Positions 9,722 through 35,200 of a stretch of DNA of 64,000 nt are shown piece by piece. Within the stretch, counting starts at the first letter, position 1, and each line of letters begins with the position of its first letter. Origin of the DNA: Candidatus Multivoradales bacterium (lineage in GTDB: Bacteria; Acidobacteriota; Thermoanaerobaculia; Multivoradales; Multivoraceae); NCBI GenBank assembly GCA_965223325.1, contig CBDCWI010000001.1, positions 256,001 through 320,000 on the forward strand, written 5' to 3'. Position numbers and translations under genes: made by a program. The notes beneath the pieces were generated by a model. The model was not told the DNA's origin, searched no databases, and saw only the letters and a list, made by a program, of their open reading frames with translations.

Positions 9722-12700
9722 CTAGCGGACGAGCGACCAGGCCTCGACGCCGCCTGACTCGAAGTCGTCTGCGAAGAGAACCGGCAGATCGGGGACCTCG
9801 CCGCCCTGGAACGCGTCGAGCGGGAGCGCCGGGTCGCCGATCAGGTTGTAGATCCTCGGCAGGTGCGGAATCGAACTCTCGTGCGGAAAGGCTTCCAGCG
9901 CACGACGAATGGCAGCCCCCAGCGACTCACTTGCCGGGTCGAAGAGGTACTCGGTGAGCGAGGCGTCCAGGTCAACAGCCGCCGAGTTCACCGACAGACC
10001 CGACGGTCCCCAGACCGCCAGCGCACCACGATCGGGCACAACAACCAGCGCCTCACTAAGGGCGGTGAGACCCGGGAACTCGAAGCGGCCGACCGAGCAG
10101 GTCAGGCTAGTGACCACCGGTAGGCGACCTCTGCCAGCCAGCGAGGCGACGTCGGCGGTGGTGAGCACACCCTCGGCGGTCAGGCGATCGAGACCGCCGT
10201 GGCCAATGTAGTTCAGCCACAGTAGACCGTCATCGAGGCGCTCTCGGACCGCCGCCCGTGCGGCGTCGGCACCGATCTGATCGAGATAGACCCGCTCGCT
10301 CGAAAGCGACTGCGGAACCTCGGCCCAGATGCGGTCCGAATCGGCGGCGAAGTCGCCAGCCTGGTCGCCGTCATCGGCCAGCAGCAAGACCCGGTCGGCG
10401 CCCGAAGCGCCAGCGTGCGCTGCGGCGAGCTTGTCGAGGTATAGGCCGAGCTCCTCGTTGGTGAGCACCGGAATGCGACCGACGACGACCTCCGGAACCG
10501 CGTCGTCGCCGTCCACATCACCGAGCACCATGTCTGACGCATAGAGACCATTCGGCGTCTCAATCAGAAGCGGTGGGACGAGGTTGGTGCCCAGACCGCG
10601 ATGATCGCGATAGTCGAAGCTGCCCTTGCCCACCAGGACGGCGTAGCGCGGCGGCGTTCGCCAGGTCGACCAGGCGTGGCCGAGGAAACGCCGCAAGGCA
10701 TCGGGCTCGGGAGTGCCCAGAGCGAAGCCATCGAAGATCGATTCGAGGGTGACAACCCGGGCGCTCAACCCAGTGCTGCGTTTCATCTCGGCGAGGTCCT
10801 CTGCCCCCGCAACGAGGCTTTCGGGAGCGATCACCAGGTACTCCGCTCCACCGTCGTCGGGGTCGGTGAGCTCGGCCCCCGCCATCGCTCGGTAGCGCGG
10901 TTCGGCCACCGCCGCTGCCTGAGCGGCGAAGATCAAGTGACCGCTCTGCTCGGGAACGAAGTGCACTGCAAACGGGGCGCTCGTCCCGGCCTGGACCTCC
11001 ATCTCGATGAGCCGCGGCAGATCGGGCTCGGTCACGTCGGCGACCACGATGTTCTGGTCGACGAAGCCATCGAGCACTGTCGGCTCGACCGACACAGTGG
11101 TAAACAAGAGTCCCTCGGCCCCGACCGTCGGCACACTCAGGTAACGTAGCTCGACCGAGTCCAGGTAGAAGATGCTGCTTGGCACCCCGTCGGGACGGGT
11201 GGCGACGAGCTCCAGGGTGTTGGTGCCCGGCTCGAGATGGCGACTCGGCAGGCTGAAGCGAACCTCGTGGCGACCCCGCCCGTCGAAGGAGACGGAGCCC
11301 GCGTGCTGACCGTTTGCATACAACGTGAGGTGGTGGTCGGTGTCGGCCAGGGACTCGGTGGCTGCAAAGAGAGCGAGGGTGACCTCGGCGGTATGTGCTG
11401 CGGCGGAGAGACCGGGCGCTCCGATCTCGACGGTGCGCGACCCAGCGGCAGGATGGCTCCCGACCAACACCGCCTGGAACCAGAACTCGGAGTAGGGATC
11501 ACGGGCGGCGGCAGTGGCGGCGAACACGTTCTGCTCCACGCGCGTACGGGTTGACACCCAGCGTGCCTGTCCGGAGGTCGCCCGCCCACCCGGCAGGACC
11601 GTTCCAACCGAACCCGGCGCGAGGTCGAGGGCATAGGCGTTCCAGGCACTCATCGACCCTGCTGCCTCGGCCCAGAAGAACAGTGCGTCTCCCCGGCTGA
11701 ACCAGCCCACGCCGTTGCGCCGTCGGTGACCGGCGTACTGGTTGCGGAGCCGGAACGAACCGTTCGCCAGACGCGCACGAACCTCGTCGAGGGTGAGATC
11801 GAAGAAACTCGCGAGCTGGGCGGCTGGAACACGGTACAGGCCGACCTCGTCGGTCTCGAGCAGCAGGCCAGAAGCACCTCCAGCCGAACGCTCGAGACTC
11901 ACCCGGCGAGCCAGGCCTGCCGCACGCCGCTCGGCGAGTCGCTGCGCGTCGAGGGCTGTGGCGCCATGAGGTGTGACCAGTACATCGTCGTCCAGGAAGC
12001 GAGACACGGCCCCGCTGGCCGTGACCCGGAAGGGCCCATAGCTCTTGACCCTGGAGCCGACTTCGATCTCCTCGAGCAGGTAGGTCGAAACGACCGCAGG
12101 GTCCGCGGCACCGTCGAGGACGGCGTAGCTGGCACCAGCGTAGGCCGAGGGATCGGCGACGATCAGGTGCTCGTTGACCCGCACCCATGAACCATCAGGA
12201 GCGGCTCGGTAGAGATCGAACCCGAGAGTTCCGTTCTCGCTCGCCGTCTCCCACTCGACGACCGCTCCGCCCGACTGCAGACGGGCCTCGAAGCGGGTCA
12301 AGAGAACCTCGGTCGCCGGGCGGGTGAAGCCGAAGTGCTGGTTGGGAACGTTGGCCGCTGCGATCGCCACCGGCTGCACCGCCGCGGTGCCGGTTTGCGT
12401 CGTCTGCTGAGAACCGGCCAGGAACGTACCGGTGGTATCGACCGCGATGATCCAGTCAGAGTTAGCGGGAAGACCGGCGAACGTGTAAGAGCCATCGGCC
12501 GCCGACGTCGTACTACCAAAGAGGGGGTCCGACGCATCGAGAACTCCATCGCCGTCGAGATCCCTGAAGAGGAAGACCGCGTTTCCTCCGATGCCACGTT
12601 CGAGCGGTGGTTCGAGCGTGGCGTCACCGTCGTTGTCGAAGTAGGTGACGCCAGAGATTGCGTACGAAGTTCCGGAGACCGAGTAGCCGAAGTCCGACAC

Positions 12701-15700
12701 CAGACTGGTGGGAGCCCGACTCGACGTCAAGGTCACCGGATGCGGGTTCTGCTGTGAGTTGTCGTTGACGTTGACTGCCCCGGTCGTCCGTGCCAACGAC
12801 TCGAGCACACTCACCACATCGGTGAGCTCGACCAGATAGCTCGCCGGCGCCGGCAGGCCGAGGAAGAAGTAGCCACCATTGGAGTTGGTGACCGCAGAAC
12901 GTAGGAGATTGTCGATCCCGACGTCGAGAACTCCATTGGCGTTGGTGTCATGCCAGAGTCGCAGGGTGACGCCTTCAATTCCCGATTCGTCGGCGTCGAG
13001 GTCGCCATCGTCGTTCTTGTCGTGCCACACCAGATCTCCAATGGCTCCTGAACCACCGCTCGGGGCGTAGCCGAAGTCGGCCAGGTTGTAGTCGTCGCCA
13101 GCCGCAAGGGTGATCGTTGCCGTCGGATCTGAACCAGCGGTGAGGTTCAGGCCCCACAGAGCACCGGCGGCATCGCTGACCGCAACTTGATAGTCGCCGG
13201 CGAGGATCCCACTGAAGTCGTAGTTGCCGCTGGCGTCAGTGACACTGGATGCAATCACCACACCCGAGTCGTTCAGAAGATCAACGGTGACATCTTCGAG
13301 GCCGAAATCGCTGCCATCGAACGAGCCATTGCCGTCGAGGTCAACGAAGACCAGGTCGCCGACTGTGGCAGCAGTCGAGCCCGCCACCAGCTCCCGGAAC
13401 CCGAAGTCTGCGAACAGCCAGTCGGTGCCCGCAGTCACTCCAAAACTGATCGTGGCTGACGGATAGATCGTCGGTTGAGGGTCGAACCCGGCGGGAAGAG
13501 TCGTTGTGTCGACCGCCGCTGTGTAGCCCCCCGTTGTCGTCACCCCGGTCGCGAGATAGCGACCGTCGGCACCGGTCGTGACAACCGTGCTGTAGCCTCC
13601 CGGTCCGGTGATGGTGACCTTGACTCCGGCGATGCCAGCCTCCCCAGGATCCTGGAAACCGTCCCCATCGCGGTCGAAGAACACCGTGTCGCCGATCGAG
13701 CTGCCGGTTGACGGCGCGTAGCCGAAGTCGGCGCGATCGTAGAACTCTGCTTCCGATAGAGCAATAGCGCCTGAAACCGCCCCGGTTCCAGTTGTCGCCG
13801 CGAAGCCGCTCGCGAGAGTGCTCTCGTCGGGGTCGACAAAGTAGGTCCCGGCGGTAAGCCCATCGAAGCGGTAGCGACCATTGATGTCGGTCTCGACCGA
13901 GGCGACCAGGGTGTCGCCAGCGTCGTACAGACCGTCGCCGTCGTCCTCATAGAGCTCGAGAGTCACGAGCGGCAGACCCGACTCCGACGAGTCGAGGATC
14001 CCGTCACGGTCGGCATCGAACCACACCCGGTCACCGATCGCGCCAGCCTCTTCCGTTCGGTTGTAGCCGAAGTCGACACCCGTTACGTTGCTCGACGAGA
14101 GCACGATCGGGAGTTCGTCGAAGCCGCTGGTGAGAACGGCATCGCGCAGCGCCCCGGCTTCGTCGGTGACCCGCACCGAGTACGTGCCAGCAGGCAGATC
14201 GTAGAAGGTGTAGTCGCCACTCGCGTCGGTGATGACACTCGCGATGACGACTCCGCCGCTATCGTGGAGATCGAGGGTGACGGCAGCAAAGCCCGGCTCC
14301 GCCGCACCGTCGTCGATGCCGTCGAGGTCGAGGTCATTGAAGACGTTGCCCGAGATGTCGGCCAGGGCGTTGTTGCGGAAACCGAAGTCGGCGTCGAGGT
14401 AGCCAGCAGCCGAGCTGATCAGGACCGCCTCGATCTGAACACCCGCAGCATTCGGCCCCGTCTCCTGATCGCTGGTGGTTGCGGTATAGGCCGCAAGCGC
14501 CGCCTGGCTCCCGTCGACACTCGCGAACCAGGTGCCACCGGCGAGCCCTTCGAAGCGGTACCAGCCGCTGGCATCCGTGAGGGTGGTTGCATGGAGCGTG
14601 TCGACGGTGGTGTCGAGGACGCCGTTCCCATCGACATCGGTCCACAGGGTCACGGTCGCTCCGGAAATCCCCGGCTCGCCGGGGTCATGGACGCCATCTC
14701 CATCGGCGTCACTGAACAGGCGGTCACCAACCGCACCCGGCACGTTGTAGCCGAAGCTCGAGGCCGCAAGGTCTGCGCTGGCAAGAAGGACACCTTTCTC
14801 GAAGGCCAGCCCGGCCGCGGTGGTACCCGTGAGGCCGAGAAGTTCCAGGTAGTTGTCGGACATCTGAATGGTGTAACTCCCGGTGGCGACGCCATCGAAG
14901 GAGAACGACCCATCGCTCGCCGATGCGACGGTTGCCACCACGCGGCCCTGGTCATCGAGGAGGTTGATGGATACATCGGGAATGCCCGACTCACCGACGT
15001 CGACGAGGCCGTTGGCGTTGGCGTCGAACCACACCCGATCTCTGATCTCATAGGTCGAGGCGCTCGAGAACCCAAAGTCGGCCTGGAGGTAGACCGTGCT
15101 GGGATTCACCGAAAGGGGTGGGCTGGTGCTGCCACCGATGCTCTGCGCACCAACGGTTGCACTGTAGCCATCGAGAACGCCTCCGGAAGCGAGATCGGCA
15201 GCCGCAACCGCGACGGTGTAGTCGCCTGGCGTCACACCGGTGAAGAGATAGCTCCCGTCTGCCGCGGTCGTCGTCGAGCTGACCGTCGTACCACTGGCGT
15301 TGTTGAGATGGATGGTGACTCCGCGAATCCCGACCTCGCCGGGATCCTGGATCCCGTCGCCGTCACCATCGCTCCACACTCGATCACCGATCGTCGCTGC
15401 CGTGGTGTCCGTCGGTGCGTAGCCAAAGTCGAGATCGCGGGCCTCTTCGTTCGCAATCACGGTGCGGGTTGTGCTGGGGTCGGTCACCGTCCCCGAGAGG
15501 CTGAGACCAGACGGTCGCGTCGTGTCATCCACCGCGACGAAGTAGACCCCGGGCCCAAGAGCCGAGAACAGATAGGCCCCCTCGAGATCGGTCTGAGCCG
15601 TCGCCACCAGGGTGTCGTCGCCCCCGCCGACGGCATTGTCGGCGCCGGCGTCCCAGAGCTCGACAGTGACGTTGGCGAGTCCAGGCTCGCCGATGTCCTG

Positions 15701-18700
15701 CACGCCGTCGCCGTCGGCATCGAGCCACACCCGATCTCCGAGCGCACCGCCGGACGCCAGCTTGTCGATCGCCAGATCGAAGACCGGGTTGATGGTCTCG
15801 AGCGATACCGCGCCCGCCTGGTTGAGGATCTGGCTGAGGCCCGCCGCCGGCGGGTTGTCGACCTGAACCGACAGGTTGATCGTCATCGACTCACCACCCA
15901 GGAGGGTGTAGCCATCGGACACAGCGACTACCAGCGGCGGCGAGTTGCCAGCCACGGTTTGGAGCTGGCGAGTGGTGGTCTCGACCTTGATTGCGTCCGC
16001 CCAGAGATACTCGGAGCCGTTGCTCTTGAGTCCCGAAGACAAGAGGCGCAGGAGGTTGTCGGCGGGATTGCCGTCGTTATAGCTCGCCGGAGGCAACGTG
16101 TACGACCTGGCGACATAAGCCGCATCGGTGCCGGCACCACCAAAGGAGCCGAGGGTCGTCCAGCTGGCTCCGTTGTCATAGGAAACGTCCAGGTTGACGA
16201 AGTCGCTCGCCGCCGAGAAGTTGATGCGCCGGTACTCGAGGGAGATCTCCGCCGACGCAGCTCCGGTGAGGTCGAAGGCACGCTGCGCACCATTGCCGGC
16301 CCGGGCGATACGCATCGAGAGGTCGCCGAGATCTGTCGCGATGGTCACGTCACCAGTGGTCGTTACACCATCGTCGGAGATCTCGGCCCAGGCCTGAGGA
16401 GTCCAGTCGATCGCGCCGTCGCTGCCGTTGTAGGCGGCCGGGTAGGTGGCAGTGAAATCGTCTCGATAGTCACTCACGACCGACACTGGCGCAGTGACGG
16501 ACGACGGGGGAACGAAACTGGCGCCCGCTGGAATCGGGTCCGAAACCGCAATCTGAGTGGCGGGCGCCGTGCCGGTGTTGGTCACCACAATGGTGTAGTT
16601 GATCGCAGCGCCCGGATTGACCGGACCACCGCCGGCGCTCGACGTCTTCTGAATCGTCAGGTTGGTCGCCGCGCCAACGCGGTAGCCGAAGTCGATCGTG
16701 TTGTCGACGTTGCCGCTGGCGATCGTGACCGCACCCCGATGATCACAAACGGTGCAGTTGTTGCCCTCGTCGGGATCGTAGCCGAGAACGACATTGGGCG
16801 GCAGCGTTCCGGTCATAACGCGCACGGTGTAGTTGCCATCTGCCAGGTCAGCGAAGGCGTAGTGGCCGTCGGCGTCGGTGTTCGTGGTGTCGATGACGGC
16901 TCCCAGGTTGTCGAGTAGATCGACCTGGACGAAGTAGAGGCCGTTCTCGGTGACCGGGTCATAAACACCGTCGGAGTTGGCGTCGAGCCACACCGTGTCG
17001 CCAATCACGCCAGGTGCCATCACACCGATGTCAGCGTACTTGACGATGTTGGTCGGCGGCAGGAAGAAGCCGAACTCACCATCGCAGACGATGCAAGGCC
17101 CGCTTTCGTCCGGATCGCCGGTGACGGTCGAACTGGGAAGGTCGGGATCGGTGAGGTCGAGCACCACGACGTAGTAGTCCGAGGGCAGACTCACGAACTC
17201 GTACTGTCCAAGGGCGTCGGTCACCGCCGAGGTGTAGAGGGTGTCGGTGCCAGCGTCGTAGACACCGTTCTGGTTCACATCGACGTAGAGGTTGACCGTC
17301 GCGTTGGGCACCCCGGGCTCTTCGGCGTCCTGGAGGCTGTCCCGATCGTCGTCCCTCCACACGCCGTTGCCAATCGAACCGCCGGGGGCGAAGCCGAAGT
17401 CCAGGTCGGTTCTGGTCTCACCGGTTGTGAGAACGACCAGCTCCTCGTCGTTCTGGGTGGTGAGGGTGTAGCGGTTGCCGTTGCCGTCGTTTGGCAGATC
17501 GCTGTCGAGCTCGTCGACATCGACCAGGTAACGGCCCGCGGCGAGGCCCGAGAACTCATAGTGCCCGGAGGCGTCGGTGCTCGCCACCCGAACGACCGCG
17601 TCGCTGGCATCGATGACACCGTTTGCATTGGTGTCTTCAAAGAGCACCACGCGAATGTTCTCGAGACCGATTTCGGTGGGATCCAGGACGCCGTCGCCGT
17701 CGTCATCTGCGAACACCGTATCGCCGATCCTCGCCGTTCCCGTGGGCTGATAGCCGAAATCGAGGGTAGTAACCGAGGCCGTTCCATCGGTGATCGCCGA
17801 GGCACGACTGTCGCAAGCGGAACAGAGACCGGGCTGGTCCGGATCTGCCGTCAGGATGGCGCCGGCGGGAAGATCGGGGTCGGCGAGGTCGACGACCACG
17901 ATCCAGTTGCCGGCCGGAAGATTGCTGAATGAGTAGCTACCGTCGGCAGCGGTAACCGTCGTTGCCACGAGCGCGTCGGTCGCGTGGTTGACGGCACCGT
18001 CACCGTCCTGGTCTTCATAGAGCCAGACCGTGACGCTGCCGATCCCCTCTTCGGCCACCTCTTCGGTACCGTTCGCGTTCCAGTCGACGAAGACGGTATC
18101 GCCGAGGGTCGAGTTCCCACTCTGGGTGTAGGCGAAATCGTGGTGTCCCGAAAGAGCGCCACCGGCGAGCGTCTGAGTGGCGGTAGTCCGGTCGTCGAGC
18201 GTGACATCGGTGTCGACCGTCTGCGTCCAGGTGCCGCCGGCCGGCAGGGTCGTCGTGTCGACGACCGCCTGATAGTTCCCGTCAGGCAGGTCGGACTGAG
18301 TCCACGAGCCATCCGCCCCGGTGGTCGTAAAGCGTGTCGCACCGTCGTCGCCGTTGCCGCAGATCGCATCGACCCCGCAGTCCTGAACCTGGATGGTCAC
18401 GCCACCGATTCCATTCTCCCCGTCGTCTTGGACGGCGTCGCCATCGTGATCGTTCCAGAGCGAACCGAAAATGGTGTTGGGAATGATGTAGCCGAAGTCG
18501 AGGCTCAGATCGTCGTCGTTGGCGGTGCTCCCGTTGTGGCTGTTGATCACCGCCGAACCGCGATCGTTGCAGACCGTACAGACGCCCGCCTCGTCTGGAT
18601 CACCCGTCGCGGTCCAGGTGGCACCGGGCAGGCTCGGTGGGATGACAACCACCACCCAGTTGCCGTCGGTGACAGCGGTGAACAGGTAGGTACCGGTGGC

Positions 18701-21700
18701 ATCGGTCGTCTGGCTGTCAGCAAGAACGCCATCGTCGCCATGGTCACCGTTGCCGTTTGGGTCGCTCCAGAGTTCGACGGTCGTATACGGGATGCCAGGC
18801 TCGCCGGCCTCCTGGACACCGTTGCTCGCGGTTCCGCCGCCATTGCCGTTGTCGGCAAAGACCGTGTCGCCGATCGTGCCCGCCGGGTCGATCCCCACCG
18901 TCGCCGTGTCGGTGGCGGTATTGACCGGGTCGCCGTTGAGGAAGTGGCCACCTGTCGAGGTTGCGGTGTTGGTCGTCGATGCGGAGTCGGGCTCGCCATC
19001 ACTGTCGGCGTCAGGAGGCTGCAGGGCCCTGAACGTCACATTGAGGAGCTTCGACTGACCGCCTGACACCGGCCCGACATCACTCCAGGAGAGCGTGCCG
19101 GTGTTGGCGTAGGGCGTCGCCCCGTAGGTCACACTGGTCGGATCCATATCTGCGGAGACGAACTCGAGAAGATCAGCATCGAACACGTCGCTAAGCGGCA
19201 GCGGACTCATGGTGTCGGCGCCGGCTCCGCTACAGGTATCCGCGGTGACTCGAAAGCCGATCGCGTCGACAAACAGCAGCGCTGCGTCGGAACTCTGGCG
19301 CTTCTTGGTGTCGATGCGAACAAAGAAGGCCGGATCAGGAAAAGTCGACCAGGACCAGGTGCGCCCCGAGGTGACGTCGAGGGCGATCGTGCCCGCGTTG
19401 GCGATCGGCGCATAGGTGTTGAGCTGGGCCGTGTCCACCGTGTTGACTACTTCGGTGGCACTGGCATCCGGGTACACGACTTCGATGAAGTCATCGACCA
19501 GCGCCTGATCGAGGTAGAGCGGCAGCAGCAGTTCGACCTTCTGGATGGTTCCCGACTGCGACCCGAAGTCGAAGTCGAGCACGCCGTAGTCGGGGTTGGC
19601 GAGTCCAAAGGACGCAGACGTGAACGTACCGTTGGGCCCGTGGATGTCGTCGACTCCGTTGCTCTGGTTGGCCCAGCCGGACGTCACGGACGTGTCTAGG
19701 GTGGTTGTCCACGCCGTCAGTTGGCAGCCACCCACCGGTCCGCGAGTGTTCTGAAGATCGATCGAGTAGCTCACCAGCTGACCTTCGAGGGCCGGATCGG
19801 GGGTGGTGAGCGTCTTGGTGACGATCAGACTCGGCAGGTAGCCGAAGTCGGCATCGTTCCAGGGGCTTGCCAGGGCTCCGCCGAGGTCGGTTGCGACGGC
19901 GATCTCATCGGTGGTCGCGGTGTAGCCAAACGGAAAGTCGGGATCGCTCCGATCGACCCTGATCAGGAAATCGCCATCGGGCAGGCTGGCAAACGAGTAC
20001 GCGCCGAGCGAGTCGGTCGCCGTGGTACGCACCAGAATGTCACCGGAATCCATCGCACCATCGCCGTTCTTGTCCCAGTACAACTCAACATCGACGTTGG
20101 CGATGCCGGGCTCACCGGCGTCCTTCGTCGCGTCCTGGTCGTCATCACGCCAGACCGTGTCGCCGACCGTGTTGGTTCCCAGAACGAGCGTCACCGCACT
20201 GTCTTCGAGAAACGCCGGCGCGCCGCCAAACGATGTGCCACCCGTGTTCTCGACGAACGGTGGCCCGCTGAATGGCGAGTCCACGGTGACGTCAAAGGAC
20301 CCAGTCACCGTGCCGGTGCTCGGTAGTGCATCCGAGAGCCACCACTGAATGTCGGTTACGCCGCTGGCCGGAACCGGCTCGGTCGTCGCCCAGCTCTGAC
20401 CACCGTCGGTTGAGAAAAGGATGCTGGCCGCCGTCGACGGGCTGTAGCCGAGGGTTGTCGATGCGCTGCCCGCGACGTAGGACGCGTTGGACGGAATTGT
20501 GTCGACGAGCACGATCGGCATGCCGAGATCGGGTCGACCCAGGTCCTGCGCGCCTGTGTTGGTGACCATCAGGTCGTAGGAGAGGGTGCCACCGGCGGCG
20601 ATCTCGGCCAGGTCGACGGCTTTGCTGAATGTCGCCTCGGCAGGAGTTGTTCCAATGACCGGCAGGCCAACGCCATAGTCGCCCGAGAACTTCTCGGTGT
20701 TCGACCCGGAGGCCGACTCCTGGTACGGAGACAGCGAAACCGAGCAGTCGCCGCGCAGGGCGAGGTACTGGTAGTGAACCTCGCCGGTCACGCCGTTGTT
20801 GTCGGGCGGAAGGTGCGTGAAGTAGAGCTCGTCCTCGAAGTTGATGATCTGATCCGGGTTGCCTCCGGAGCGGCTGATCGTCAGCGTGCCCCACGTCTTG
20901 ATGAGGCGAAGACAGGTCGGGTCAAAGCTCGGGTCGCCAACCGGCTGCAGCCAGGCGTTGTAGTCGAACAAGAGGTCGCCATCGTTGTCGAAGCCTTTGT
21001 TGACGATTCCGAGGTCGTAGTTCACGCCGTTCGAAGTCACCGTTTCGCCTGGTTCGACGGTGTCCAGGTTGGTGTTGAACCAGGTGCCGCCACTGGGGAA
21101 GATCTTGTTGGCGTTGGCCGAGATCTCGCTACGCATCGTCCCAGTCGCCGTTTCTGTGTCAGAAGGACCCTCGGCTGACACCGCCCAGATGTCGTACTCG
21201 AGCCACAGATCGTCGGCGGTGACGTTGGAGACTCCAAAGACTGGCGCGCCTGTGTTGTTGGGGTTGCCGCGCCGGGGATAGGTCAGATGCCAGTACTGGC
21301 GCGCACATTCGCCGGGGGCGAGGGTGCCGACCCAACGAGTCGCATCGACCACATCACCAATGTGCGTAAAGGAGTACAACCCGGTGTGAGCGAGCTGCGG
21401 GTGTTCGGCCACGAAACCAGCCGTCGCACTGTCGCGCACCGGGTAGGTACCCGGAGTGTTGGCCGCCTGGTCTCCGATCTTCATCTGCACCCCGGAGAGG
21501 GCTGCGTCACCGATGTTGCAGGCGCGTCCTGAGATCGTGGCGATCTCGGGCGCGAACGTCGAAGGAGAGGTGACGTTCGAATCGACCACGAAGTTCGGCC
21601 CGGCGCTGATCGTCACCTCGAGCTGGCCCGCCGCATGAGCGGTCCCGGCTACGCCGACCAGCAGAAGGTGGACGACCAGGAGCGAGAGCATCCAGGGCCA

Positions 21701-21898
21701 TCTGGTGGCGGCTGCGTGAGAGTGCGTGCGACCCTTGGGGGCACGAAGAAGATTGGGCAAGAGCTGGGGCCTTTGCGGCAGATGAAAAGACAGCACGCGA
21801 CCGACGAACGAAAGAGTTCGTCGGCAAGGTGACCCCGATATTGTATCGCAAATCTTCGATAAGACGAAAATCTCTCTTTTGCAGAATTTCACCAGCAA
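9722..21898 (-). CDS. Giant (~4000 aa) surface protein: about 17 SdrD B-like repeats, 3 DUF11-like domains, peptidase C25 (gingipain-like) domain, LFADDFESG tail
   Basis: Repeated IGDxVWxDxDxDG...GEPG...TDAxGxYxF...DFGY units; DUF11-like xxxKT...YxxxVTNTG; C25 motifs YLVIAP, YAVLVG, VGRIPV, NYIGHGG, SLTCSVG, NLIGDPAL; signal peptide ending AHA. True start probably near 21760-21796 because a TACAAT -10 lies at 21840-21845. Confidence 0.92.
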   Translation of the reverse strand: MLVKFCKREIFVLSKICDTISGSPCRRTLSFVGRVLSFHLPQRPQLLPNLLRAPKGRTHSHAAATRWPWMLSLLVVHLLLVGVAGTAHAAGQLEVTISAGPNFVVDSNVTSPSTFAPEIATISGRACNIGDAALSGVQMKIGDQAANTPGTYPVRDSATAGFVAEHPQLAHTGLYSFTHIGDVVDATRWVGTLAPGECARQYWHLTYPRRGNPNNTGAPVFGVSNVTADDLWLEYDIWAVSAEGPSDTETATGTMRSEISANANKIFPSGGTWFNTNLDTVEPGETVTSNGVNYDLGIVNKGFDNDGDLLFDYNAWLQPVGDPSFDPTCLRLIKTWGTLTISRSGGNPDQIINFEDELYFTHLPPDNNGVTGEVHYQYLALRGDCSVSLSPYQESASGSNTEKFSGDYGVGLPVIGTTPAEATFSKAVDLAEIAAGGTLSYDLMVTNTGAQDLGRPDLGMPIVLVDTIPSNASYVAGSASTTLGYSPSTAASILFSTDGGQSWATTEPVPASGVTDIQWWLSDALPSTGTVTGSFDVTVDSPFSGPPFVENTGGTSFGGAPAFLEDSAVTLVLGTNTVGDTVWRDDDQDATKDAGEPGIANVDVELYWDKNGDGAMDSGDILVRTTATDSLGAYSFASLPDGDFLIRVDRSDPDFPFGYTATTDEIAVATDLGGALASPWNDADFGYLPSLIVTKTLTTPDPALEGQLVSYSIDLQNTRGPVGGCQLTAWTTTLDTSVTSGWANQSNGVDDIHGPNGTFTSASFGLANPDYGVLDFDFGSQSGTIQKVELLLPLYLDQALVDDFIEVVYPDASATEVVNTVDTAQLNTYAPIANAGTIALDVTSGRTWSWSTFPDPAFFVRIDTKKRQSSDAALLFVDAIGFRVTADTCSGAGADTMSPLPLSDVFDADLLEFVSADMDPTSVTYGATPYANTGTLSWSDVGPVSGGQSKLLNVTFRALQPPDADSDGEPDSASTTNTATSTGGHFLNGDPVNTATDTATVGIDPAGTIGDTVFADNGNGGGTASNGVQEAGEPGIPYTTVELWSDPNGNGDHGDDGVLADSQTTDATGTYLFTAVTDGNWVVVVIPPSLPGATWTATGDPDEAGVCTVCNDRGSAVINSHNGSTANDDDLSLDFGYIIPNTIFGSLWNDHDGDAVQDDGENGIGGVTIQVQDCGVDAICGNGDDGATRFTTTGADGSWTQSDLPDGNYQAVVDTTTLPAGGTWTQTVDTDVTLDDRTTATQTLAGGALSGHHDFAYTQSGNSTLGDTVFVDWNANGTEEVAEEGIGSVTVWLYEDQDGDGAVNHATDALVATTVTAADGSYSFSNLPAGNWIVVVDLADPDLPAGAILTADPDQPGLCSACDSRASAITDGTASVTTLDFGYQPTGTARIGDTVFADDDGDGVLDPTEIGLENIRVVLFEDTNANGVIDASDAVVRVASTDASGHYEFSGLAAGRYLVDVDELDSDLPNDGNGNRYTLTTQNDEELVVLTTGETRTDLDFGFAPGGSIGNGVWRDDDRDSLQDAEEPGVPNATVNLYVDVNQNGVYDAGTDTLYTSAVTDALGQYEFVSLPSDYYVVVLDLTDPDLPSSTVTGDPDESGPCIVCDGEFGFFLPPTNIVKYADIGVMAPGVIGDTVWLDANSDGVYDPVTENGLYFVQVDLLDNLGAVIDTTNTDADGHYAFADLADGNYTVRVMTGTLPPNVVLGYDPDEGNNCTVCDHRGAVTIASGNVDNTIDFGYRVGAATNLTIQKTSSAGGGPVNPGAAINYTIVVTNTGTAPATQIAVSDPIPAGASFVPPSSVTAPVSVVSDYRDDFTATYPAAYNGSDGAIDWTPQAWAEISDDGVTTTGDVTIATDLGDLSMRIARAGNGAQRAFDLTGAASAEISLEYRRINFSAASDFVNLDVSYDNGASWTTLGSFGGAGTDAAYVARSYTLPPASYNDGNPADNLLRLLSSGLKSNGSEYLWADAIKVETTTRQLQTVAGNSPPLVVAVSDGYTLLGGESMTINLSVQVDNPPAAGLSQILNQAGAVSLETINPVFDLAIDKLASGGALGDRVWLDADGDGVQDIGEPGLANVTVELWDAGADNAVGGGDDTLVATAQTDLEGAYLFSALGPGVYFVAVDDTTRPSGLSLSGTVTDPSTTRTVIANEEARDLDFGYAPTDTTAATIGDRVWSDGDGDGIQDPGEVGIRGVTIHLNNASGTTVSSTTTAADGSYLFTGVTPGDYTVAVAAADLASGGVLDGYSATVGAQSIGGSTSPPLSVNPSTVYLQADFGFSSASTYEIRDRVWFDANANGLVDVGESGIPDVSINLLDDQGRVVATVASASDGSFSFDGVATGSYTIQMSDNYLELLGLTGTTAAGLAFEKGVLLASADLAASSFGYNVPGAVGDRLFSDADGDGVHDPGEPGISGATVTLWTDVDGNGVLDTTVDTLHATTLTDASGWYRFEGLAGGTWFASVDGSQAALAAYTATTSDQETGPNAAGVQIEAVLISSAAGYLDADFGFRNNALADISGNVFNDLDLDGIDDGAAEPGFAAVTLDLHDSGGVVIASVITDASGDYTFYDLPAGTYSVRVTDEAGALRDAVLTSGFDELPIVLSSSNVTGVDFGYNRTEEAGAIGDRVWFDADRDGILDSSESGLPLVTLELYEDDGDGLYDAGDTLVASVETDINGRYRFDGLTAGTYFVDPDESTLASGFAATTGTGAVSGAIALSEAEFYDRADFGYAPSTGSSIGDTVFFDRDGDGFQDPGEAGIAGVKVTITGPGGYSTVVTTGADGRYLATGVTTTGGYTAAVDTTTLPAGFDPQPTIYPSATISFGVTAGTDWLFADFGFRELVAGSTAATVGDLVFVDLDGNGSFDGSDFGLEDVTVDLLNDSGVVIASSVTDASGNYDFSGILAGDYQVAVSDAAGALWGLNLTAGSDPTATITLAAGDDYNLADFGYAPSGGSGAIGDLVWHDKNDDGDLDADESGIEGVTLRLWHDTNANGVLDVGIDNLLRSAVTNSNGGYFFLGLPAPASYLVELTDVVSVLESLARTTGAVNVNDNSQQNPHPVTLTSSRAPTSLVSDFGYSVSGTSYAISGVTYFDNDGDATLEPPLERGIGGNAVFLFRDLDGDGVLDASDPLFGSTTSAADGSYTFAGLPANSDWIIAVDTTGTFLAGSQQTTQTGTAAVQPVAIAAANVPNQHFGFTRPATEVLLTRFEARLQSGGAVVEWETASENGTLGFDLYRAAPDGSWVRVNEHLIVADPSAYAGASYAVLDGAADPAVVSTYLLEEIEVGSRVKSYGPFRVTASGAVSRFLDDDVLVTPHGATALDAQRLAERRAAGLARRVSLERSAGGASGLLLETDEVGLYRVPAAQLASFFDLTLDEVRARLANGSFRLRNQYAGHRRRNGVGWFSRGDALFFWAEAAGSMSAWNAYALDLAPGSVGTVLPGGRATSGQARWVSTRTRVEQNVFAATAAARDPYSEFWFQAVLVGSHPAAGSRTVEIGAPGLSAAAHTAEVTLALFAATESLADTDHHLTLYANGQHAGSVSFDGRGRHEVRFSLPSRHLEPGTNTLELVATRPDGVPSSIFYLDSVELRYLSVPTVGAEGLLFTTVSVEPTVLDGFVDQNIVVADVTEPDLPRLIEMEVQAGTSAPFAVHFVPEQSGHLIFAAQAAAVAEPRYRAMAGAELTDPDDGGAEYLVIAPESLVAGAEDLAEMKRSTGLSARVVTLESIFDGFALGTPEPDALRRFLGHAWSTWRTPPRYAVLVGKGSFDYRDHRGLGTNLVPPLLIETPNGLYASDMVLGDVDGDDAVPEVVVGRIPVLTNEELGLYLDKLAAAHAGASGADRVLLLADDGDQAGDFAADSDRIWAEVPQSLSSERVYLDQIGADAARAAVRERLDDGLLWLNYIGHGGLDRLTAEGVLTTADVASLAGRGRLPVVTSLTCSVGRFEFPGLTALSEALVVVPDRGALAVWGPSGLSVNSAAVDLDASLTEYLFDPASESLGAAIRRALEAFPHESSIPHLPRIYNLIGDPALPLDAFQGGEVPDLPVLFADDFESGGVEAWSLVR

Positions 21899-29914: not shown

Positions 29915-32900
29915 CTACCACTGCTGGCGATACCCAAAGGTCAACGTGTAGAAGTCGAGATCATCACGTGCCAGATCAGTATCGAGCATGAAGTACAGCA
30001 TGCGCGAGCGCTTGAAGGTGAATTGCAAACCAAGCCCGAGGTTGAAGTAGTTGCGATCCGGGCTGTCGGTCAGGAGGCGGAACTGCTGCGCCGAAGTATC
30101 GACGACGAAGGTTCCGGGTATGCCGCGGCTGTCGTTCTCGAACTCGTGGAACCAGGACACCCGCGCGACCGGGTTCATAATCCCCCAACTCTTCGAAACC
30201 GGCAGCGCGGTCTCGAGGCCGATCTCACCGATCGTCGACTCGATGGTCTGAGCGGCGACGGAAACCTCCAGACCGGTGTTGCCGCCTTCGGTGAAGCCAT
30301 CGATCTCGACGCGGCTGCTGGTGGCGCGCACGAAGCCACTGGTGTCGAGACGTCCGAGCTGGAAGTCGTAGCCAAGGCCACCGTTTAGCGACCACTGTTC
30401 GGCGTCTGCTGAACCGTCGGCGTAGTAGACGGTGCGACCGTTCCAGGCCAACGGCAGTTCGATTCGTCGCCTGCTGTCGAAGGTCAGGCTGCCGTAGCTC
30501 AGCGCTCCGTCAGCGTAGAAGCGACCGAACTGCGCACCGCTGTATACCGAGAGCGTGGCACCAGAGGTCTCGAGGCGACCATCGTCGTGACCGATGTCGG
30601 TGCGACTATCGATGTAGCCGAGCGCAGTTCCGATGTACGAGCGCTTCCACTTCCAGTCCAGGCCGGCGGTGACGCCACGGGTACCGATGTCGTAGCCGGG
30701 CTCGACGGCGGTGCGTTCGTGCTCGCCGATCGAGATGCGACCATTGACGAACCAGCCGAGGCGCGATTCGCCGCGCTCGTCGAGCAGATAGTTGGCGTCT
30801 CCCGAACGGTCACCGTCCTGCTCGTTTTCGGAGTCCTGTTCGCTCGCTATGCCCGCCTCCGTGCGAACCTCTTCGAGAGCCCGATCGACGGCTCGGGTTT
30901 CTGCGGCGCCTTCGGCCTCCCACGAATCCAGACCCTGGTCTAGTTGCCCGGCTGAAACACCCTGGCCTTGAATGTCGAAGCCGAGACCCGAAACCCCTGA
31001 CGGCGCGTTACCAGTACGTAGGGCGGTCTGGCGTTGCGTGACGTTCTGCATCTGCGTACGACTCGATGCCAGGGCCACGTCACCCTTGATTGGCAGGCCG
31101 GTCGGGGTGATGGCTGCTACTGCGGAGCGCGTCGCTCCCACGGTGGGCAACGTGTAGAGGTAGTCGCAGAGCTCGGCCATCGTGGCCTCGGGATCAACAC
31201 ACGCCTCGTCGAGGGCGTCGGCAATCGAATCCTCGTCGGGCTGGTCGTCGCCGAAGTGGTCACCGAGATTGCCGCGCACCGAGACCTGAAACTGCACCGT
31301 GGCTGCGCTGTTGCGATCGTGTTCTCGGCCAGCAAGACGGGCGGTAACCGTGACCATTCCGGGAAGCGTCGGCATGCGCACGCGCTGCTCAGAGTCCCCG
31401 CGAGAGTCGGAGCGAGTCAGAGTGCCAGTCTCGAGCGTTGCGACCTCGGTCGACCACTCGATCTCTGCGTTGCCAATTCCCTGATCGTTGGCGTCGATCG
31501 CGCGCACCGCCAGGGTGACCTGTTCTCCGACCTTCGAGGAAAGTTCCGTCTCCTCGGCCACCAGGCGCACGGCTCGGTCGTCGTCCTTGATCGTCACCGC
31601 TCCACCAGAGCCGGCGAACTGCGCCGTGTCACCAGTGAGCAGGGTGACCTCGACCATGAACTTCTCATCGCCTTCGGCCAGATAGTCGTCGAGAATGCCC
31701 ACCCGCACGATGCGCTCACCCGTCTGACCGGCGCCCCAGCTGACAGTCTCGGTACGGCCTTCGAAGTCTTGACCGGCGACAGCACTCATCGAAAGCGCCC
31801 GCAGCTGGACATCGACCGGGCCGGCTGAGTCTCCAGAGAGGAGCAAACGGGCCCCGAGCCGCCGTGCCGACTCGTCGACCGAAGCGGGCAGCTCGACGGT
31901 CAGCACTGGCAGGTCCTGGTCGTCGTCGAGAATCGTCACCGTCGCTCTACTCGAGCCAAGGGTGGCGCCTTGGGGGTTCGATAGCACGACGGTGAAGCTC
32001 TCGATCGCCTCACGCTGGGTGTCGGCAATTACCTCGAGCATGATGACGCGCTCACTCTGACCGGGTGCGAAGCTCACGCTGCCGCTCGTACCGCGGAAGT
32101 CGCTGTTGGCCATTGCGCTGCCACTTTCGAGCGCCCAGTCAACCGTCACCAGTGAAGTCGCGGCTGGCGAGAGGCTGACCTTGACCTCGACGGGCGTCCC
32201 GCCCGCGTCACCTTCGAGAACCTCGACAGGACTCACGGTCAAGACCGAAGTGGTCGGCGGCGGAGATGGAGGCGGTGGCGGTGGCGCTGGCCCGGGGTTG
32301 GTGTCGTCGTTCTTGATCAGGCCAGTGGCACGATCGGCACCGGCTCCCAGGGTCACGCCCTGTGGGTTGCTGAGCACCAGCTCGAAGCTCTCGTTGGGCT
32401 CGACGGCGGTGTCTGAGCGCACCTGCACCGCGACCTTGTTACTGCCGGCCCCCAGTGGCTGGGTTCCCGCTCGTGCCGTGTAGTCGAGCGGCGCCTTGGC
32501 AGTTCCGTCGACCGTCTGGAAGTCGACGCTCGCACCCGGGCTCGGAATTCCAGTGACGACGAGATCGAATTCGAGCACCTGGGTTCCCGAGTCGCCCTCG
32601 GTCAACTCCACATCCCCGACCGAAAGCACCGGCAGCGCGGCGGCGACCGGGTCGATGTCGTTGATGGTGACGTTGATCACGGGAACCGGCACGTTGAGGT
32701 AGGTGGGATTCCAATTGGTGATCTCGAGCTGCATCGTTTCAGCACCCGGCTCGTCGATGCCGTCGTGAAAAATGTCGACCGTCAAGAAGGCACCCGAGTC
32801 GATACCGCGCACCGGCCCAGGGCACACCTCGACCGAGCGGCCGGTGAAGCCTTCGAAGTCTTCGCCAGCAACTGCAGAGCCGTTGACTGTCTTGTAGGTG

Positions 32901-35200
32901 ATGAACGAGCAGGCTGCCGGGTCAGCGTCGAAGAAGATCGGGAGCTCGAGCGTCGTAACCATGCCCTCCTGCTCGTCGACCACCTGATCGGTTACCGAAA
33001 GAGAGACCGGCACGATGGTTTCGACATCGAGGATCGTGCCCAGGGCCTCGACGTTGGCAAGCACAATGAAGTCATCTCCGCCCGTAGCCGTATTGATCTC
33101 GCTGATGCGAATGAAGAACTGTTCATCGCCCTCGACGTCCGTGTCGTCCAGGAGCGGCACCGCGATCTCGGCATTCAGCGCGCCGGCCGAGATCTTGTGG
33201 TGACCACCCGTTGAGGGCGTACGCACGGTGTAGTCAGACCCGCCCGTCGCCGTACGATCCTCGGTGTAGTAGTCGACGTCGATCTCGAAGTCGACGGCCG
33301 GCGAGATGGTCACCGGGAACTTGATGAACGCTTGATCCTCGGACTGGGTCGCATTCCCGATGGTCACCACCGTCTTGTCGTCATCGTCGAGGATGCCGGC
33401 CTGCACGCTGGACGGGAACGAGGCAGCTCCGCTGACGCTCAAGTTGATATCGAAGGTCTCCAGCGCCGGCTCGTCGCGGTCATCGGCGAAGATTTCGATC
33501 TCAAAGCCATGGACGCGATTCGTCATGGTGACGAGCTGCGGATTGACCGGGTCGACCACATCGGCCGCACTCGCCTGGCCGGCTCCGGTACCGAGCGTAA
33601 GCGTCCAGGTCACATCGACCGACTCACCCGCCGGTGGAGTACCGTCGAGCTCGAGCCGCACCGGCAGCTTGGTTGTCGTCCCACTGGTGCCCTCGACGAC
33701 CTGGCCGACGACAACCGCCAGGTTCGGCAGGTCATCGTCGACGATGGTGAAGGTGTGTTCCGCGGGGCCTACCAACTCGGCGCCAATGACCTCGACGATG
33801 CGAATGGTGAAGGTTTCGTCGCCTTCCCAGAGAGAATCCTGGGTCGCCCCGAAGGTCGGATTGAACGTTGCGTTGGGGCCGAAACCGCCACTGAACGTGT
33901 GACTGCCCGAGCCATCGCTGAAATCAACGCCGCGCTCAGCGCTTCCTGAAACGAACTGCCACTCGACGAACACCGTGTCCGTCGGCCCCATGCCGTTGGC
34001 CTCGATCGGCACACCACTTCCGACCCCCTCGGTGGTACTCGAGGTAGGACCGGTACCGAAGAAAACCGTCGTGGGTGGCGCACTGTCGTCGTCGAGAATA
34101 TGGCCGACGGCGGGTGTCGACGAGACGTTGAGCCACGGTGCCGGCGTCTGCGCAGTCAGGCCAACCTGAAACGACTCGGGGCCTTCTAGTGTGTTGTCAT
34201 TCTTGACTTCGACAAGCAGATCTTTAGCCAGCAAGCCCGCCTCGAGCACGAAGATCCCACCATCGGCAATCTGCGGGATGTAGTCCTGGCTCTGCGCCGA
34301 CACGTTGCCATAGTTGACGATCAGCTGGATGTCGGGGTGATCTGCCCGATCGGCTTCAACACGGAAGCGGAGAAACTCCTGCGGATCGGGTGGGTTGTGT
34401 TCCTGCGCACTGGCGCTCCGGATGACCACGGACACCTGGTCGTTGTCGGAGATCGTTGCCTGTTCTGAGAACGGCGTGAGGGTATAAGCCGGGTGCGAGA
34501 CGCCGTCGACAACGATGGTGAACGTCTCGTCGTCCTCCACCGCATCGTCATCGGTCGTGTTGATGTTGATGCTGAAAAAGGTGTTGCCGGCCGGCACAGT
34601 CATCGAACCGGGTTGGAGGTCGGTGTAGTCCGCGCCCGGAGAGGCACTTCCGGGTTCGAGGTGGTAGAAGACCTTGAACTCAGGGCCGGGGCCCGGACTG
34701 ATCGAGAAGTCGGCGCTGATGGGGTTGCCTTCGGTGACGGCCAACGCCCCCGGCGAAGTCACCGAAGTAATCGTCCGCGAGTCATCGTCGGTGATTGTCA
34801 TCAAGATCGACGCGGTACCCCGCAACGCACCGCTTGGATTGCTCAGCACCACCGCGAACTGCTCGTCTTCTTCCCAGGTGCTGTCGTCGGAGAGGTCGAC
34901 ACAGCCCGTCGCCTGATCCCCGACGTTAGGAAGGCTCAGCGACTGGGAAGTCACCGAGATGTAGTCGCCACCGCCGGCGCTCAGGGATTCGGTCGACCAG
35001 TTGACGGTCGCCGGTCCTGGCGCCCGAGCGACCTGGCGAAGCTCGACAGTGAAACAGATGTTGGACGCCGACTCCACCGCAACCGGAGCCGGCCCCACCG
35101 CCACGATTTCGTAGTCCTGCGCTACGACCGGAGCGGCACAGAGCAGCCCGAGCAAGAGGCAGAAACCAACGAATCGAAACACCAGACCACGGGAGGACAT
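29915..35200 (-). CDS. Calx-beta repeat autotransporter (paralog A)
   Basis: Signal peptide; about 10 Calx-beta units (TxDGTA...DY...DDxxxExxExF...TIxDDD); Ig-like domain; C-terminal beta-barrel ending FGYRQQW. Confidence 0.9.
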   Translation of the reverse strand: MSSRGLVFRFVGFCLLLGLLCAAPVVAQDYEIVAVGPAPVAVESASNICFTVELRQVARAPGPATVNWSTESLSAGGGDYISVTSQSLSLPNVGDQATGCVDLSDDSTWEEDEQFAVVLSNPSGALRGTASILMTITDDDSRTITSVTSPGALAVTEGNPISADFSISPGPGPEFKVFYHLEPGSASPGADYTDLQPGSMTVPAGNTFFSININTTDDDAVEDDETFTIVVDGVSHPAYTLTPFSEQATISDNDQVSVVIRSASAQEHNPPDPQEFLRFRVEADRADHPDIQLIVNYGNVSAQSQDYIPQIADGGIFVLEAGLLAKDLLVEVKNDNTLEGPESFQVGLTAQTPAPWLNVSSTPAVGHILDDDSAPPTTVFFGTGPTSSTTEGVGSGVPIEANGMGPTDTVFVEWQFVSGSAERGVDFSDGSGSHTFSGGFGPNATFNPTFGATQDSLWEGDETFTIRIVEVIGAELVGPAEHTFTIVDDDLPNLAVVVGQVVEGTSGTTTKLPVRLELDGTPPAGESVDVTWTLTLGTGAGQASAADVVDPVNPQLVTMTNRVHGFEIEIFADDRDEPALETFDINLSVSGAASFPSSVQAGILDDDDKTVVTIGNATQSEDQAFIKFPVTISPAVDFEIDVDYYTEDRTATGGSDYTVRTPSTGGHHKISAGALNAEIAVPLLDDTDVEGDEQFFIRISEINTATGGDDFIVLANVEALGTILDVETIVPVSLSVTDQVVDEQEGMVTTLELPIFFDADPAACSFITYKTVNGSAVAGEDFEGFTGRSVEVCPGPVRGIDSGAFLTVDIFHDGIDEPGAETMQLEITNWNPTYLNVPVPVINVTINDIDPVAAALPVLSVGDVELTEGDSGTQVLEFDLVVTGIPSPGASVDFQTVDGTAKAPLDYTARAGTQPLGAGSNKVAVQVRSDTAVEPNESFELVLSNPQGVTLGAGADRATGLIKNDDTNPGPAPPPPPPSPPPTTSVLTVSPVEVLEGDAGGTPVEVKVSLSPAATSLVTVDWALESGSAMANSDFRGTSGSVSFAPGQSERVIMLEVIADTQREAIESFTVVLSNPQGATLGSSRATVTILDDDQDLPVLTVELPASVDESARRLGARLLLSGDSAGPVDVQLRALSMSAVAGQDFEGRTETVSWGAGQTGERIVRVGILDDYLAEGDEKFMVEVTLLTGDTAQFAGSGGAVTIKDDDRAVRLVAEETELSSKVGEQVTLAVRAIDANDQGIGNAEIEWSTEVATLETGTLTRSDSRGDSEQRVRMPTLPGMVTVTARLAGREHDRNSAATVQFQVSVRGNLGDHFGDDQPDEDSIADALDEACVDPEATMAELCDYLYTLPTVGATRSAVAAITPTGLPIKGDVALASSRTQMQNVTQRQTALRTGNAPSGVSGLGFDIQGQGVSAGQLDQGLDSWEAEGAAETRAVDRALEEVRTEAGIASEQDSENEQDGDRSGDANYLLDERGESRLGWFVNGRISIGEHERTAVEPGYDIGTRGVTAGLDWKWKRSYIGTALGYIDSRTDIGHDDGRLETSGATLSVYSGAQFGRFYADGALSYGSLTFDSRRRIELPLAWNGRTVYYADGSADAEQWSLNGGLGYDFQLGRLDTSGFVRATSSRVEIDGFTEGGNTGLEVSVAAQTIESTIGEIGLETALPVSKSWGIMNPVARVSWFHEFENDSRGIPGTFVVDTSAQQFRLLTDSPDRNYFNLGLGLQFTFKRSRMLYFMLDTDLARDDLDFYTLTFGYRQQW

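Follow-up and report, generated by a model that had tools for sequence, protein, structure and literature searches.

A giant stalk protein with a PorU-like C25 peptidase cassette and a short conserved C-terminal tag outside the Bacteroidota

The window analyzed here, a 64-kb stretch (64,000 nucleotides; positions 256,001 to 320,000) of contig CBDCWI010000001.1, contains an open reading frame (ORF) at 9722..21898 on the reverse strand that encodes a giant protein. About 3100 residues of this protein form a stalk of beta-sandwich modules, which consists of 17 SdrD-B-type repeats, DUF11-like domains and two inserts. A conserved cassette makes up the last ~870 residues; it comprises more than the C25 peptidase domain alone and is nearer to PorU than to the gingipains by sequence and predicted fold. 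The protein then ends in a short tag, named here for its FESG motif, which also terminates a glycoside hydrolase family 9 (GH9) endoglucanase encoded nearby. The fusion of stalk and peptidase is real, but it is one instance of a widespread, uncharacterized family. Judged from the sequences collected, the tag is a lineage-specific feature and not a partner feature of the protease.

Research on C25 peptidases has dealt almost exclusively with the gingipains and PorU in Bacteroidota, and there these enzymes depend on a type IX secretion system (T9SS). No experimental literature was found on PorU-like C-terminal cassettes of the non-Bacteroidota groups described below, and none was found on C25 peptidases of Thermoanaerobaculia. 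The cassette clade is annotated in databases, and NCBI records name its members ‘C25 family cysteine peptidase’, without a function having been found described in the literature.

Results

The C-terminal cassette

The original prediction, made from the letters of the window, had placed a full C25 region near the end of the ORF, with the catalytic His at 10199-10201 and the Cys at 10097-10099, and both residues lie exactly there. The Pfam family Peptidase_C25 (PF01364) is matched over its whole profile (positions 1-374 of 374) with an E-value of 1.9e-73 and 248 bits against a cut-off of 23. The two catalytic residues, His3900 and Cys3934, correspond to His711 and Cys745 of the 869-residue cassette that served as the query throughout (P0002), and in alignment with PorU and RgpB they fall on the GHG and TC motifs of those enzymes. 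Asp3845 (10364-10366) aligns with Glu152 of RgpB. His and Cys are invariant across 16 aligned cassette sequences; in pairwise alignments with relatives the His is kept in 185/186, the Cys in 186/186 and the acid aligned with RgpB Glu152 in 164/186. On these alignments the C25 catalytic machinery of the cassette looks intact.

An AlphaFold2 (AF2) model of P0002 divides the cassette into an immunoglobulin (Ig)-like domain (11-103), a linker with a predicted local distance difference test score (pLDDT) below 50 (107-151), three beta-domains (155-482), the catalytic domain (498-842) and a disordered end (845-869). The Ig-like domain is referred to as the WETASE module, and its residues W27, T29 and E32 are invariant in the 16 sequences. 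The two motifs that had been put at about 12200-12320, at the junction between stalk and protease, were located at its start: PATEVLLTRFEAR at residues 3194-3206 (12281-12319) and VEWETASENGTLGFDLYR at residues 3214-3231 (12206-12259). The gingipain propeptide family PF08126 was not detected by Pfam in the giant protein at E<=10 or at E<=1. Among the relatives, P0158 has a weak match to it (E 2e-4) at the equivalent position of its cassette, and in P0151 a PF08126 match sits after the first C25 domain. The first of the three pre-catalytic beta-domains may be like the C25 propeptide.

Three comparisons address the placement of the cassette among characterized C25 enzymes. In a phmmer search of solved structures, P0002 matched PorU (6ZA2) with an E-value of 1.7e-9 and RgpB with one of 2.4e-3. 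When the AF2 model was compared by Foldseek, PorU was matched at E 1.7e-28 over 821 columns and RgpB at E 2.3e-15 over 374. The NCBIfam T9SS_sortase model gave 208 bits, with profile positions 171-733 on residues 298-839 of P0002. By all three methods PorU-like fits better than the label ‘gingipain-type’, under which the protease was first described.

Relatives of the cassette and conservation of the fusion

Relatives of the cassette were counted by a profile-free scan of 1.84 billion cluster representatives with P0002 as the query. The scan returned 16188 representatives at E<=0.001, 9697 at E<=1e-10 and 4097 at E<=1e-30. Among the best 150, 48 are at least 2000 amino acids long and 16 at least 3000. 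By these numbers the fusion of a giant stalk to a C25 protease is not special to this genome. The cassette has consistent boundaries: in 109 of the best 150 representatives no more than 15 residues separate the end of the protein from the GDP motif with which the C25 domain closes, and in 121 of the other 149 listed the best-scoring stretch starts within query residues 1-21. Of 23 mid-length relatives, 20 align with 96% of the 869 query residues.

Among these relatives the protein that bears the cassette is variable and often giant, and the cassette nearly always stands at its C-terminus. The passengers ahead of it include SdrD_B/DUF11 stalks (P0147, P0148, P0152 and P0155), DUF11 arrays, LamG with DUF2341, beta-helix domains, beta-propellers and P-domains. 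From the general arrangement (WETASE module, linker, beta-domains, and C25 at the C-terminus) the window protein departs only by the added tag. In a genome collection, with the WETASE motif as the search pattern, the cassette was retrieved at 69 loci, the best at 39% identity. These loci belong to Thermoanaerobaculia, Holophagae, Vicinamibacteria, Desulfobacterales, Planctomycetota, Kiritimatiellia, Lentisphaerae, Gammaproteobacteria, Anaerolineales and others. The family occurs in Acidobacteriota, Desulfobacterales, Planctomycetota, Chloroflexota, Verrucomicrobiota-related groups and Gammaproteobacteria.

One relative, P0232 (4246 amino acids), is an orthologue: it is collinear with the window protein from end to end, at 48-52% identity, and bears this tag as well. 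The conservation of the whole architecture, including the tag, argues for selection on the fusion, which is conserved and not an accident of assembly. The N-terminal regions of the two proteins (residues 90-575 of the window protein) are 61% identical and the cassettes 37% (phmmer), as compared to 48-52% for the whole; the protease end seems to evolve faster than the rest in this pair.

Several relatives have other C-terminal ends. An extra domain of ~150 residues follows in several of them (locus L046 of Lentisphaerae, P0227, P0235 and P0290), and P0257 ends in a Cys-containing hydrophobic, Arg-rich tail that resembles a sorting signal. Some C25 relatives from Acidobacteriota (P0171, P0260 and P0265; loci L005 and L008) have a different short Pro-rich tail with the end ..GGSGE or ..SGGE-COOH, which a strict pattern finds in 3/188 relatives.

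The FESG tag

The giant protein ends ...LFADDFESGGVEAWSLVR / FADDFESGGVEAWSLVR, with FESG 13 residues ahead of the stop. A FESG tail in place of a T9SS C-terminal domain was part of the original prediction and was borne out: the tail is more than a chance match, and no T9SS domain was found at the C-terminus. The pattern F[ED][ST]G has eight matches over all six frames of the window, and only two of these are found no more than 13 residues ahead of the stop in an ORF of more than 700 codons. One is the giant gene. The other is the GH9 endoglucanase gene, an ORF at 5981-8047 on the forward strand with CelD_N and Glyco_hydro_9 domains (start in the public protein collection at 6155), which lies 1.7 kb from the giant gene.

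In 31 proteins, which belong to two unrelated families, an extended form of the tag motif stands at the extreme C-terminus. With the window’s own two counted, these are 21/120 GH9 relatives and 10/188 C25 relatives; among the GH9 relatives listed, 20/119 carry the tag. The consensus is FADGFESGDTSAWSxVVP-COOH, with a hydrophobic residue before it and often a Pro-rich spacer. The F, D, F, E and W of the tag are invariant in 31/31, D-G is found in 21/31 and E-S in 24/31, and in 29/31 the protein ends 13-20 residues past the first F. This uniform length and the five invariant positions across two unrelated families led to the rejection of another candidate origin, in which the tag is a mere truncated remnant of a lectin-type domain with a similar first strand. 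No Pfam or NCBIfam model covered the tag in scans of five tagged proteins at E<=10, and no relevant literature was found on ‘FESG’ or ‘GFESG’ as a C-terminal tag or sorting motif. The tag is disordered in both AF2 models, with pLDDT below 50 in the cassette model; the GH9 model is poor in other regions too. Among tagged proteins with intact N-termini, a crude pattern identified a Sec-type signal peptide in 20/26, and four more were recognized by eye.

The tag is not tied to the protease at the protein level, because 178/188 cassette relatives lack it and because it is also found on GH9 relatives. At this level the coupling of C25 and FESG that had been proposed does not hold, and the two are distributed independently. 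In 1.14 Mb around the 69 C25 loci there was no real tagged ORF, with a single chance match on a 194-codon ORF at L038, as compared to two tagged ORFs in the 64-kb window. A FastTree of 184 cassettes, from which the tag had been cut off beforehand and for which no careful tree search was made, required 4 changes in tag presence versus 7-10 in 1000 label shuffles, and the nearest neighbors of the window protein on it are tag-bearing C25 proteins. Such clustering is expected from shared ancestry for a lineage-specific tag and does not show co-evolution.

Other GH9 relatives have IPTL-CTERM, SLH domains, hydrophobic anchors, Cys-rich modules or T9SS-like ends in the same position. Because anchoring and sorting modules fill this position, the tag was interpreted as a linear C-terminal signal for sorting or retention, and from its position we infer that it is a signal separate from the protease.

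Two tag-bearing giants, P0170 and P0181, have a FESG-like strand directly after the signal peptide (..LPHTEGFES.. and ..LPWTEDFEG..), an observation that had helped to prompt the idea of a lectin-type remnant. The tag may thus imitate the strand with which an N-terminal domain begins; the window protein has no such strand. The close relative P0147 (2407 amino acids) ends ...SPEGLFLDGVRVGRLGCVV..., which looks like a tag disrupted past LF.DG, and a frameshift or assembly error is possible there.

The ORF and the repeat stalk

Translation of the window gives one uninterrupted ORF of 4058 codons with its stop at 9722-9724, as had been predicted. The entry in the public protein collection has 3989 amino acids and begins at the ATG at 21691; the likely start is this ATG or the TTG at 21760, which would add a positively charged N-region. 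With either start the N-terminus has the same hydrophobic, signal-peptide-like stretch with its end between AHA and AGQ. This call was made by eye from the translation. Coordinates of all features are collected in Table 1.

The predicted number of about 17 SdrD-B-like repeats agrees with the 17 copies found by a hidden Markov model (HMM) built from the protein’s own repeats, of which one stands at 576-689, six at 1007-1741 and ten at 2051-3193. Pfam SdrD_B matches 16 stretches (E 6e-221). The repeat blocks are set apart by a 317-residue insert and by a unit of DUF11 plus a second insert. Three DUF11-like domains had been predicted, a number that is supported only in part. One is significant (residues 1747-1798, E 3.7e-8); the other two are marginal, with DUF11 at E 0.023 in the N-terminal region and DUF7507 at E 0.61 in insert 1. 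Atlas look-alikes of the N-terminal region are DUF11 clusters (score 0.90), which is a lead only. The best Pfam matches of insert 1 are weak (Agarase_CBM, E 0.15), and this insert is kept in the relatives P0232 and P0235. The unit of DUF11 and insert 2 was found again in 37 collected C25 relatives. The whole protein has 21 calcium-site-like motifs of the form D-x-[DN]-x-[DN]-G.

Table 1. Features of the giant gene and of the neighboring tagged gene, in window coordinates.
Feature	Coordinates	Strand	Residues	Basis or remark
Whole ORF	9722..21898	-	4058 codons	Likely start ATG 21691 (3989 aa) or TTG 21760
Signal-peptide-like N-terminus, MLSLLVVHLLLVGVAGTAHA followed by AGQ	21632..21691	-	70-89	Read from translation
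N-terminal region, probably DUF11-like beta-sandwiches	20174..21631	-	90-575	Pfam marginal
SdrD-B-type repeat 1	19832..20173	-	576-689	Pfam and own-repeat HMM
Insert 1, beta-rich, without assigned family	18881..19831	-	690-1006	Weak Pfam matches only
SdrD-B-type repeats 2-7	16676..18880	-	1007-1741	Own-repeat HMM and Pfam SdrD_B
DUF11 domain and insert 2	15749..16675	-	1747-1798 (DUF11), insert up to 2050	Pfam; orthologue comparison
SdrD-B-type repeats 8-17	12320..15748	-	2051-3193	Own-repeat HMM
Ig-like WETASE module, first part of the cassette	12023..12319	-	3194-3292	Seven predicted strands (AF2)
Low-confidence linker with one helix; candidate processing site	11870..12022	-	3293-3343	AF2
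Three beta-domains, aligned with the pre-catalytic part of PorU	10841..11869	-	3344-3686	AF2, NCBIfam
Peptidase C25 catalytic domain	9818..10840	-	3687-4027	Pfam
C-terminal extension: Pro-rich spacer, then FESG tag VLFADDFESGGVEAWSLVR (9725-9781)	9725..9817	-	4028-4039 (spacer), 4040-4058 (tag)	
Second FESG tag, IFSDGFESGTTNRWD	8000..8044	+		C-terminus of the GH9 endoglucanase gene

T9SS context

Scans of window ORFs with Pfam (25 ORFs) and NCBIfam (35 ORFs) found no T9SS component and no gene of the attachment complex (PorV, PorQ, PorZ). The protein likely lies outside a T9SS context, a conclusion that beyond the 64-kb window draws on its non-Bacteroidota relatives. Abby et al. 2016 (PMC4793230) report T9SS in 60/97 Bacteroidetes genomes and in no other clade. 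Diderm features of the window are a Skp/OmpH-like gene and two Calx-beta autotransporters.

A T9SS C-terminal domain within the giant protein was rejected. The sole TIGR04183 signal (25.3 bits) falls inside the repeat at 1656-1697, covers profile positions 20-61 of 72 and includes no stretch that passes on its own, and it was read as spurious.

It had also been proposed that the Ig-like module resembles one common near the C-terminus of T9SS cargo. Among five Bacteroidota- or Ignavibacteria-type loci with a WETASE-like match, two have a T9SS type A domain directly after the module (L058 and L060, where TIGR04183 scores 40.8 and 40.9 bits and the cut-off is 23). Two others (L064 and L066) are under the TIGR04183 cut-off and one (L065) has no such domain, so that the resemblance is confirmed only in part. 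The Bacteroidota-type matches are short, at 40-79 residues and 33-53% identity.

Neighboring genes

Genes for the C25 cassette often adjoin a set that resembles peptide modification genes, namely radical SAM/SPASM, HprK-related kinase-like, AsnB/lasso-cyclase-like and NTP_transf_5 genes, joined in some cases by a Wzz/tyrosine-kinase polysaccharide gene. The loci concerned are L001, L004, L008, L014, L015, L017, L018, L021, L033, L034, L036, L038, L039, L043, L049, L051, L062, L063 and L067. At least one of the four types lies within 8 kb in 17/43 loci that have at least 2 kb downstream. The AsnB/lasso-cyclase-like gene scores 370 bits with NF033535, under the cut-off of 525. None of the four types, nor Wzz-tyrosine kinase, was found in the window, where tblastn matched a generic Ser/Thr kinase domain only.

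The two autotransporter genes of the window, at 29915-35254 and 35702-40957 on the reverse strand, are in tandem and encode ~1750 residues each, with 7-8 Calx-beta stretches, an Autotransporter beta-domain and the end ...TLTFGYRQQW. At 347-2332 on the reverse strand, a Ser/Thr kinase is fused to a caspase (C14) domain, and it adjoins a Sel1-repeat protein with a caspase domain at 2348-3898 on the same strand. The caspase domain of the Sel1-repeat protein matches the NCBIfam model ‘caspase, EACC1-associated type’, under the cut-off of that model.

Discussion

Proposed function and alternatives

The reading that we favor, tentatively and at a little short of an even chance, is that of a Sec-exported stalk protein with an active, zymogen-controlled cysteine peptidase, in which the tag is an independent sorting or retention signal. 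The giant protein would be exported by Sec and take up an extracellular or surface location in a diderm, probably Acidobacteriota-like (Thermoanaerobaculia-related) host, where the stalk would be followed at the C-terminal side by the conserved cassette of ~840 residues. This cassette would be an active cysteine peptidase that is produced as a tethered zymogen and controlled by the beta-domains before it. Processing might take place in the flexible linker (residues 3293-3343), by analogy with the adhesin-protease polyproteins of the gingipains. The product would be a protease that acts on extracellular or surface proteins, either while still attached to a long stalk or after release from it. 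The tag would control sorting or retention apart from the protease, and would be put on other secreted enzymes as well, such as the GH9 cellulase.

Several points weigh against this reading. The best match by fold and by sequence is a transpeptidase, PorU, and not a degradative protease, which favors the alternatives considered below. The propeptide-like domain has weak backing, a single Pfam match (E 2e-4) in one relative, P0158. The linker is poorly conserved among the 16 sequences, and a cleavage site can therefore not be named. The AF2 models are of medium quality; that of P0002, from a 16-row alignment, has a pLDDT of 72 and a predicted template modeling score of 0.62. The taxonomic placement rests on best hits, to Acidobacteriota, at 33-58% identity. 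No literature was found on activity, localization or cleavage for any member of the cassette subfamily.

The first alternative is that the cassette is a sortase-like module acting in cis. It would cut its own chain in the linker past the WETASE module and either transfer the stalk to a surface acceptor (glycan or lipopolysaccharide) or release it; phyla without T9SS would thus have, in the protein itself, a device to attach or release variable passengers. PorU is the closest known protein by three methods, and PMC10202324 describes PorU as cleaving and then transpeptidating. The position of the cassette, nearly always C-terminal behind highly variable passengers, is like that of an export or attachment module. 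At L058 and L060 the WETASE-like module stands directly ahead of the T9SS type A domain, where PorU cuts its cargo, and in the AF2 model of the window protein a disordered linker follows the module. A polysaccharide chain-length/tyrosine-kinase gene lies within 8 kb in 6/43 related loci. Yet sequence cannot tell hydrolysis from transpeptidation, the linker is not conserved, and no PorZ, PorV or PorQ analogue was seen in the window by the Pfam and NCBIfam scans. The WETASE-like matches in Bacteroidota are also as short as noted above, with a T9SS domain above cut-off in 2/5 only. We consider this alternative unlikely.

A bolder form would make the cassette a T9SS-independent, sortase-like attachment device across diderm phyla, which cuts in cis past the WETASE module, a kind of module that also stands ahead of the PorU cleavage site in some Bacteroidota cargo, and ligates the passenger to a surface acceptor, with the tag perhaps also recognized in the lineage of the window. 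This form we hold to be quite unlikely. If it were true, a new sorting signal of the C-terminal kind would have been found in the tag, and the chemistry of PorU would be far older and wider than T9SS.

The second alternative, in which the C25 protease acts in trans as an analogue of PorU, would have it take the FESG tag off its cargo, for example the GH9 enzyme, and attach or release that cargo, while carrying the signal itself. PorU likewise retains its own uncleaved C-terminal signal domain, according to PMC11285876 and PMC10202324. The tag-bearing C25 proteins are the nearest relatives of the window protein, and the tagged GH9 gene is only 1.7 kb away, but the clustering on the tree is expected from shared ancestry alone. 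The invariant Asp and Glu of the tag are mostly followed by Gly, Ser or Ala, which fits the PorU preference of T/E/D/N followed by G/A/S given in PMC10202324. This fit is possibly coincidence and carries little weight, since the dipeptides D-G and E-S are common. The tag is present on only 10/188 C25 cassette relatives, and the lack of a real tag in 1.14 Mb at 69 loci of other genomes indicates that the cassette family has a function independent of it. Fusion to giant passengers also sets the cassette apart from the dedicated PorU of ~1150 residues. The trans-acting function is, on balance, very unlikely.

A structural or adhesive fiber with the C25 domain as a non-catalytic binding head would agree with the similarity of the stalk to adhesin B-repeat regions, and inactivated enzyme folds are found on many surface proteins, but the retention of His (185/186), Cys (186/186) and the third acid (164/186) and the full coverage of the Pfam profile (1-374) make it highly improbable.

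The window exposes two general points: PorU-like enzymes in cis behind variable passengers in many non-Bacteroidota phyla, and an undescribed C-terminal tag. Degradation, self-processing or ligation by the cassette would each bear on how such phyla build and trim their cell surfaces.

Comparison with known systems

PorU of P. gingivalis (PDB 6ZA2) is the best fold match of the window protein (821 columns). Both have a C25 domain whose His and Cys lie in common motifs (..NY.GHGG.. and ..T.TC..), and the beta-domains that precede catalytic C25 align as well (profile 171-733). The window protein differs in its score with the PorU model NF033707, which is 203.5-207.8 bits against an equivalog cut-off of 420 and covers only profile positions 171-733 of 1095. 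The last ~360 profile positions, including the C-terminal T9SS domain of PorU, are missing from the window protein, which ends 31 residues past C25, in the FESG tag. PorU stands alone, whereas the cassette of the window sits behind a 3100-residue stalk. Relatives of the cassette occur in phyla where, in PMC4793230, no T9SS was found.

The likeness to the gingipains RgpB, Kgp and HRgpA lies in PF01364 and in catalytic domains that superpose with a template modeling score of 0.62-0.63, normalized to RgpB. The sequence match is weaker than that to PorU (E 2.4e-3). The domain order also differs, as the window protein has the stalk first and the protease last, and the Ig-like and T9SS C-terminal domains that follow the catalytic domain in gingipains are replaced by only 31 residues. 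The gingipains are a precedent for a C25 protease and adhesin-type domains in one polypeptide that is processed after export.

The 17 SdrD_B repeats with calcium-site-like Asp-rich motifs and the long stalk resemble the B-repeat regions of the SdrD MSCRAMM, from which the window protein differs in that it lacks both the ligand-binding A region and the Ser-Asp repeat, shows no LPXTG at its C-terminus and has a diderm host. Membership in the MSCRAMM family was rejected, as the NCBIfam model MSCRAMM_SdrD gave 428 bits against a cut-off of 2500 and matched in its B-repeat part only. The protein is a member of the C25 family and not of the PorU, gingipain or SdrD families, since defining features of each of these three were looked for and were absent.

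Like the T9SS C-terminal domain, PEP-CTERM and IPTL-CTERM, the FESG tag occupies the extreme C-terminus of Sec-exported enzymes. It differs from these sorting and anchoring tags in that it is ~18 residues long and hydrophilic, with neither a transmembrane stretch nor a folded domain. As a short, strongly conserved C-terminal motif on secreted enzymes, the tag is a candidate new sorting or retention signal.

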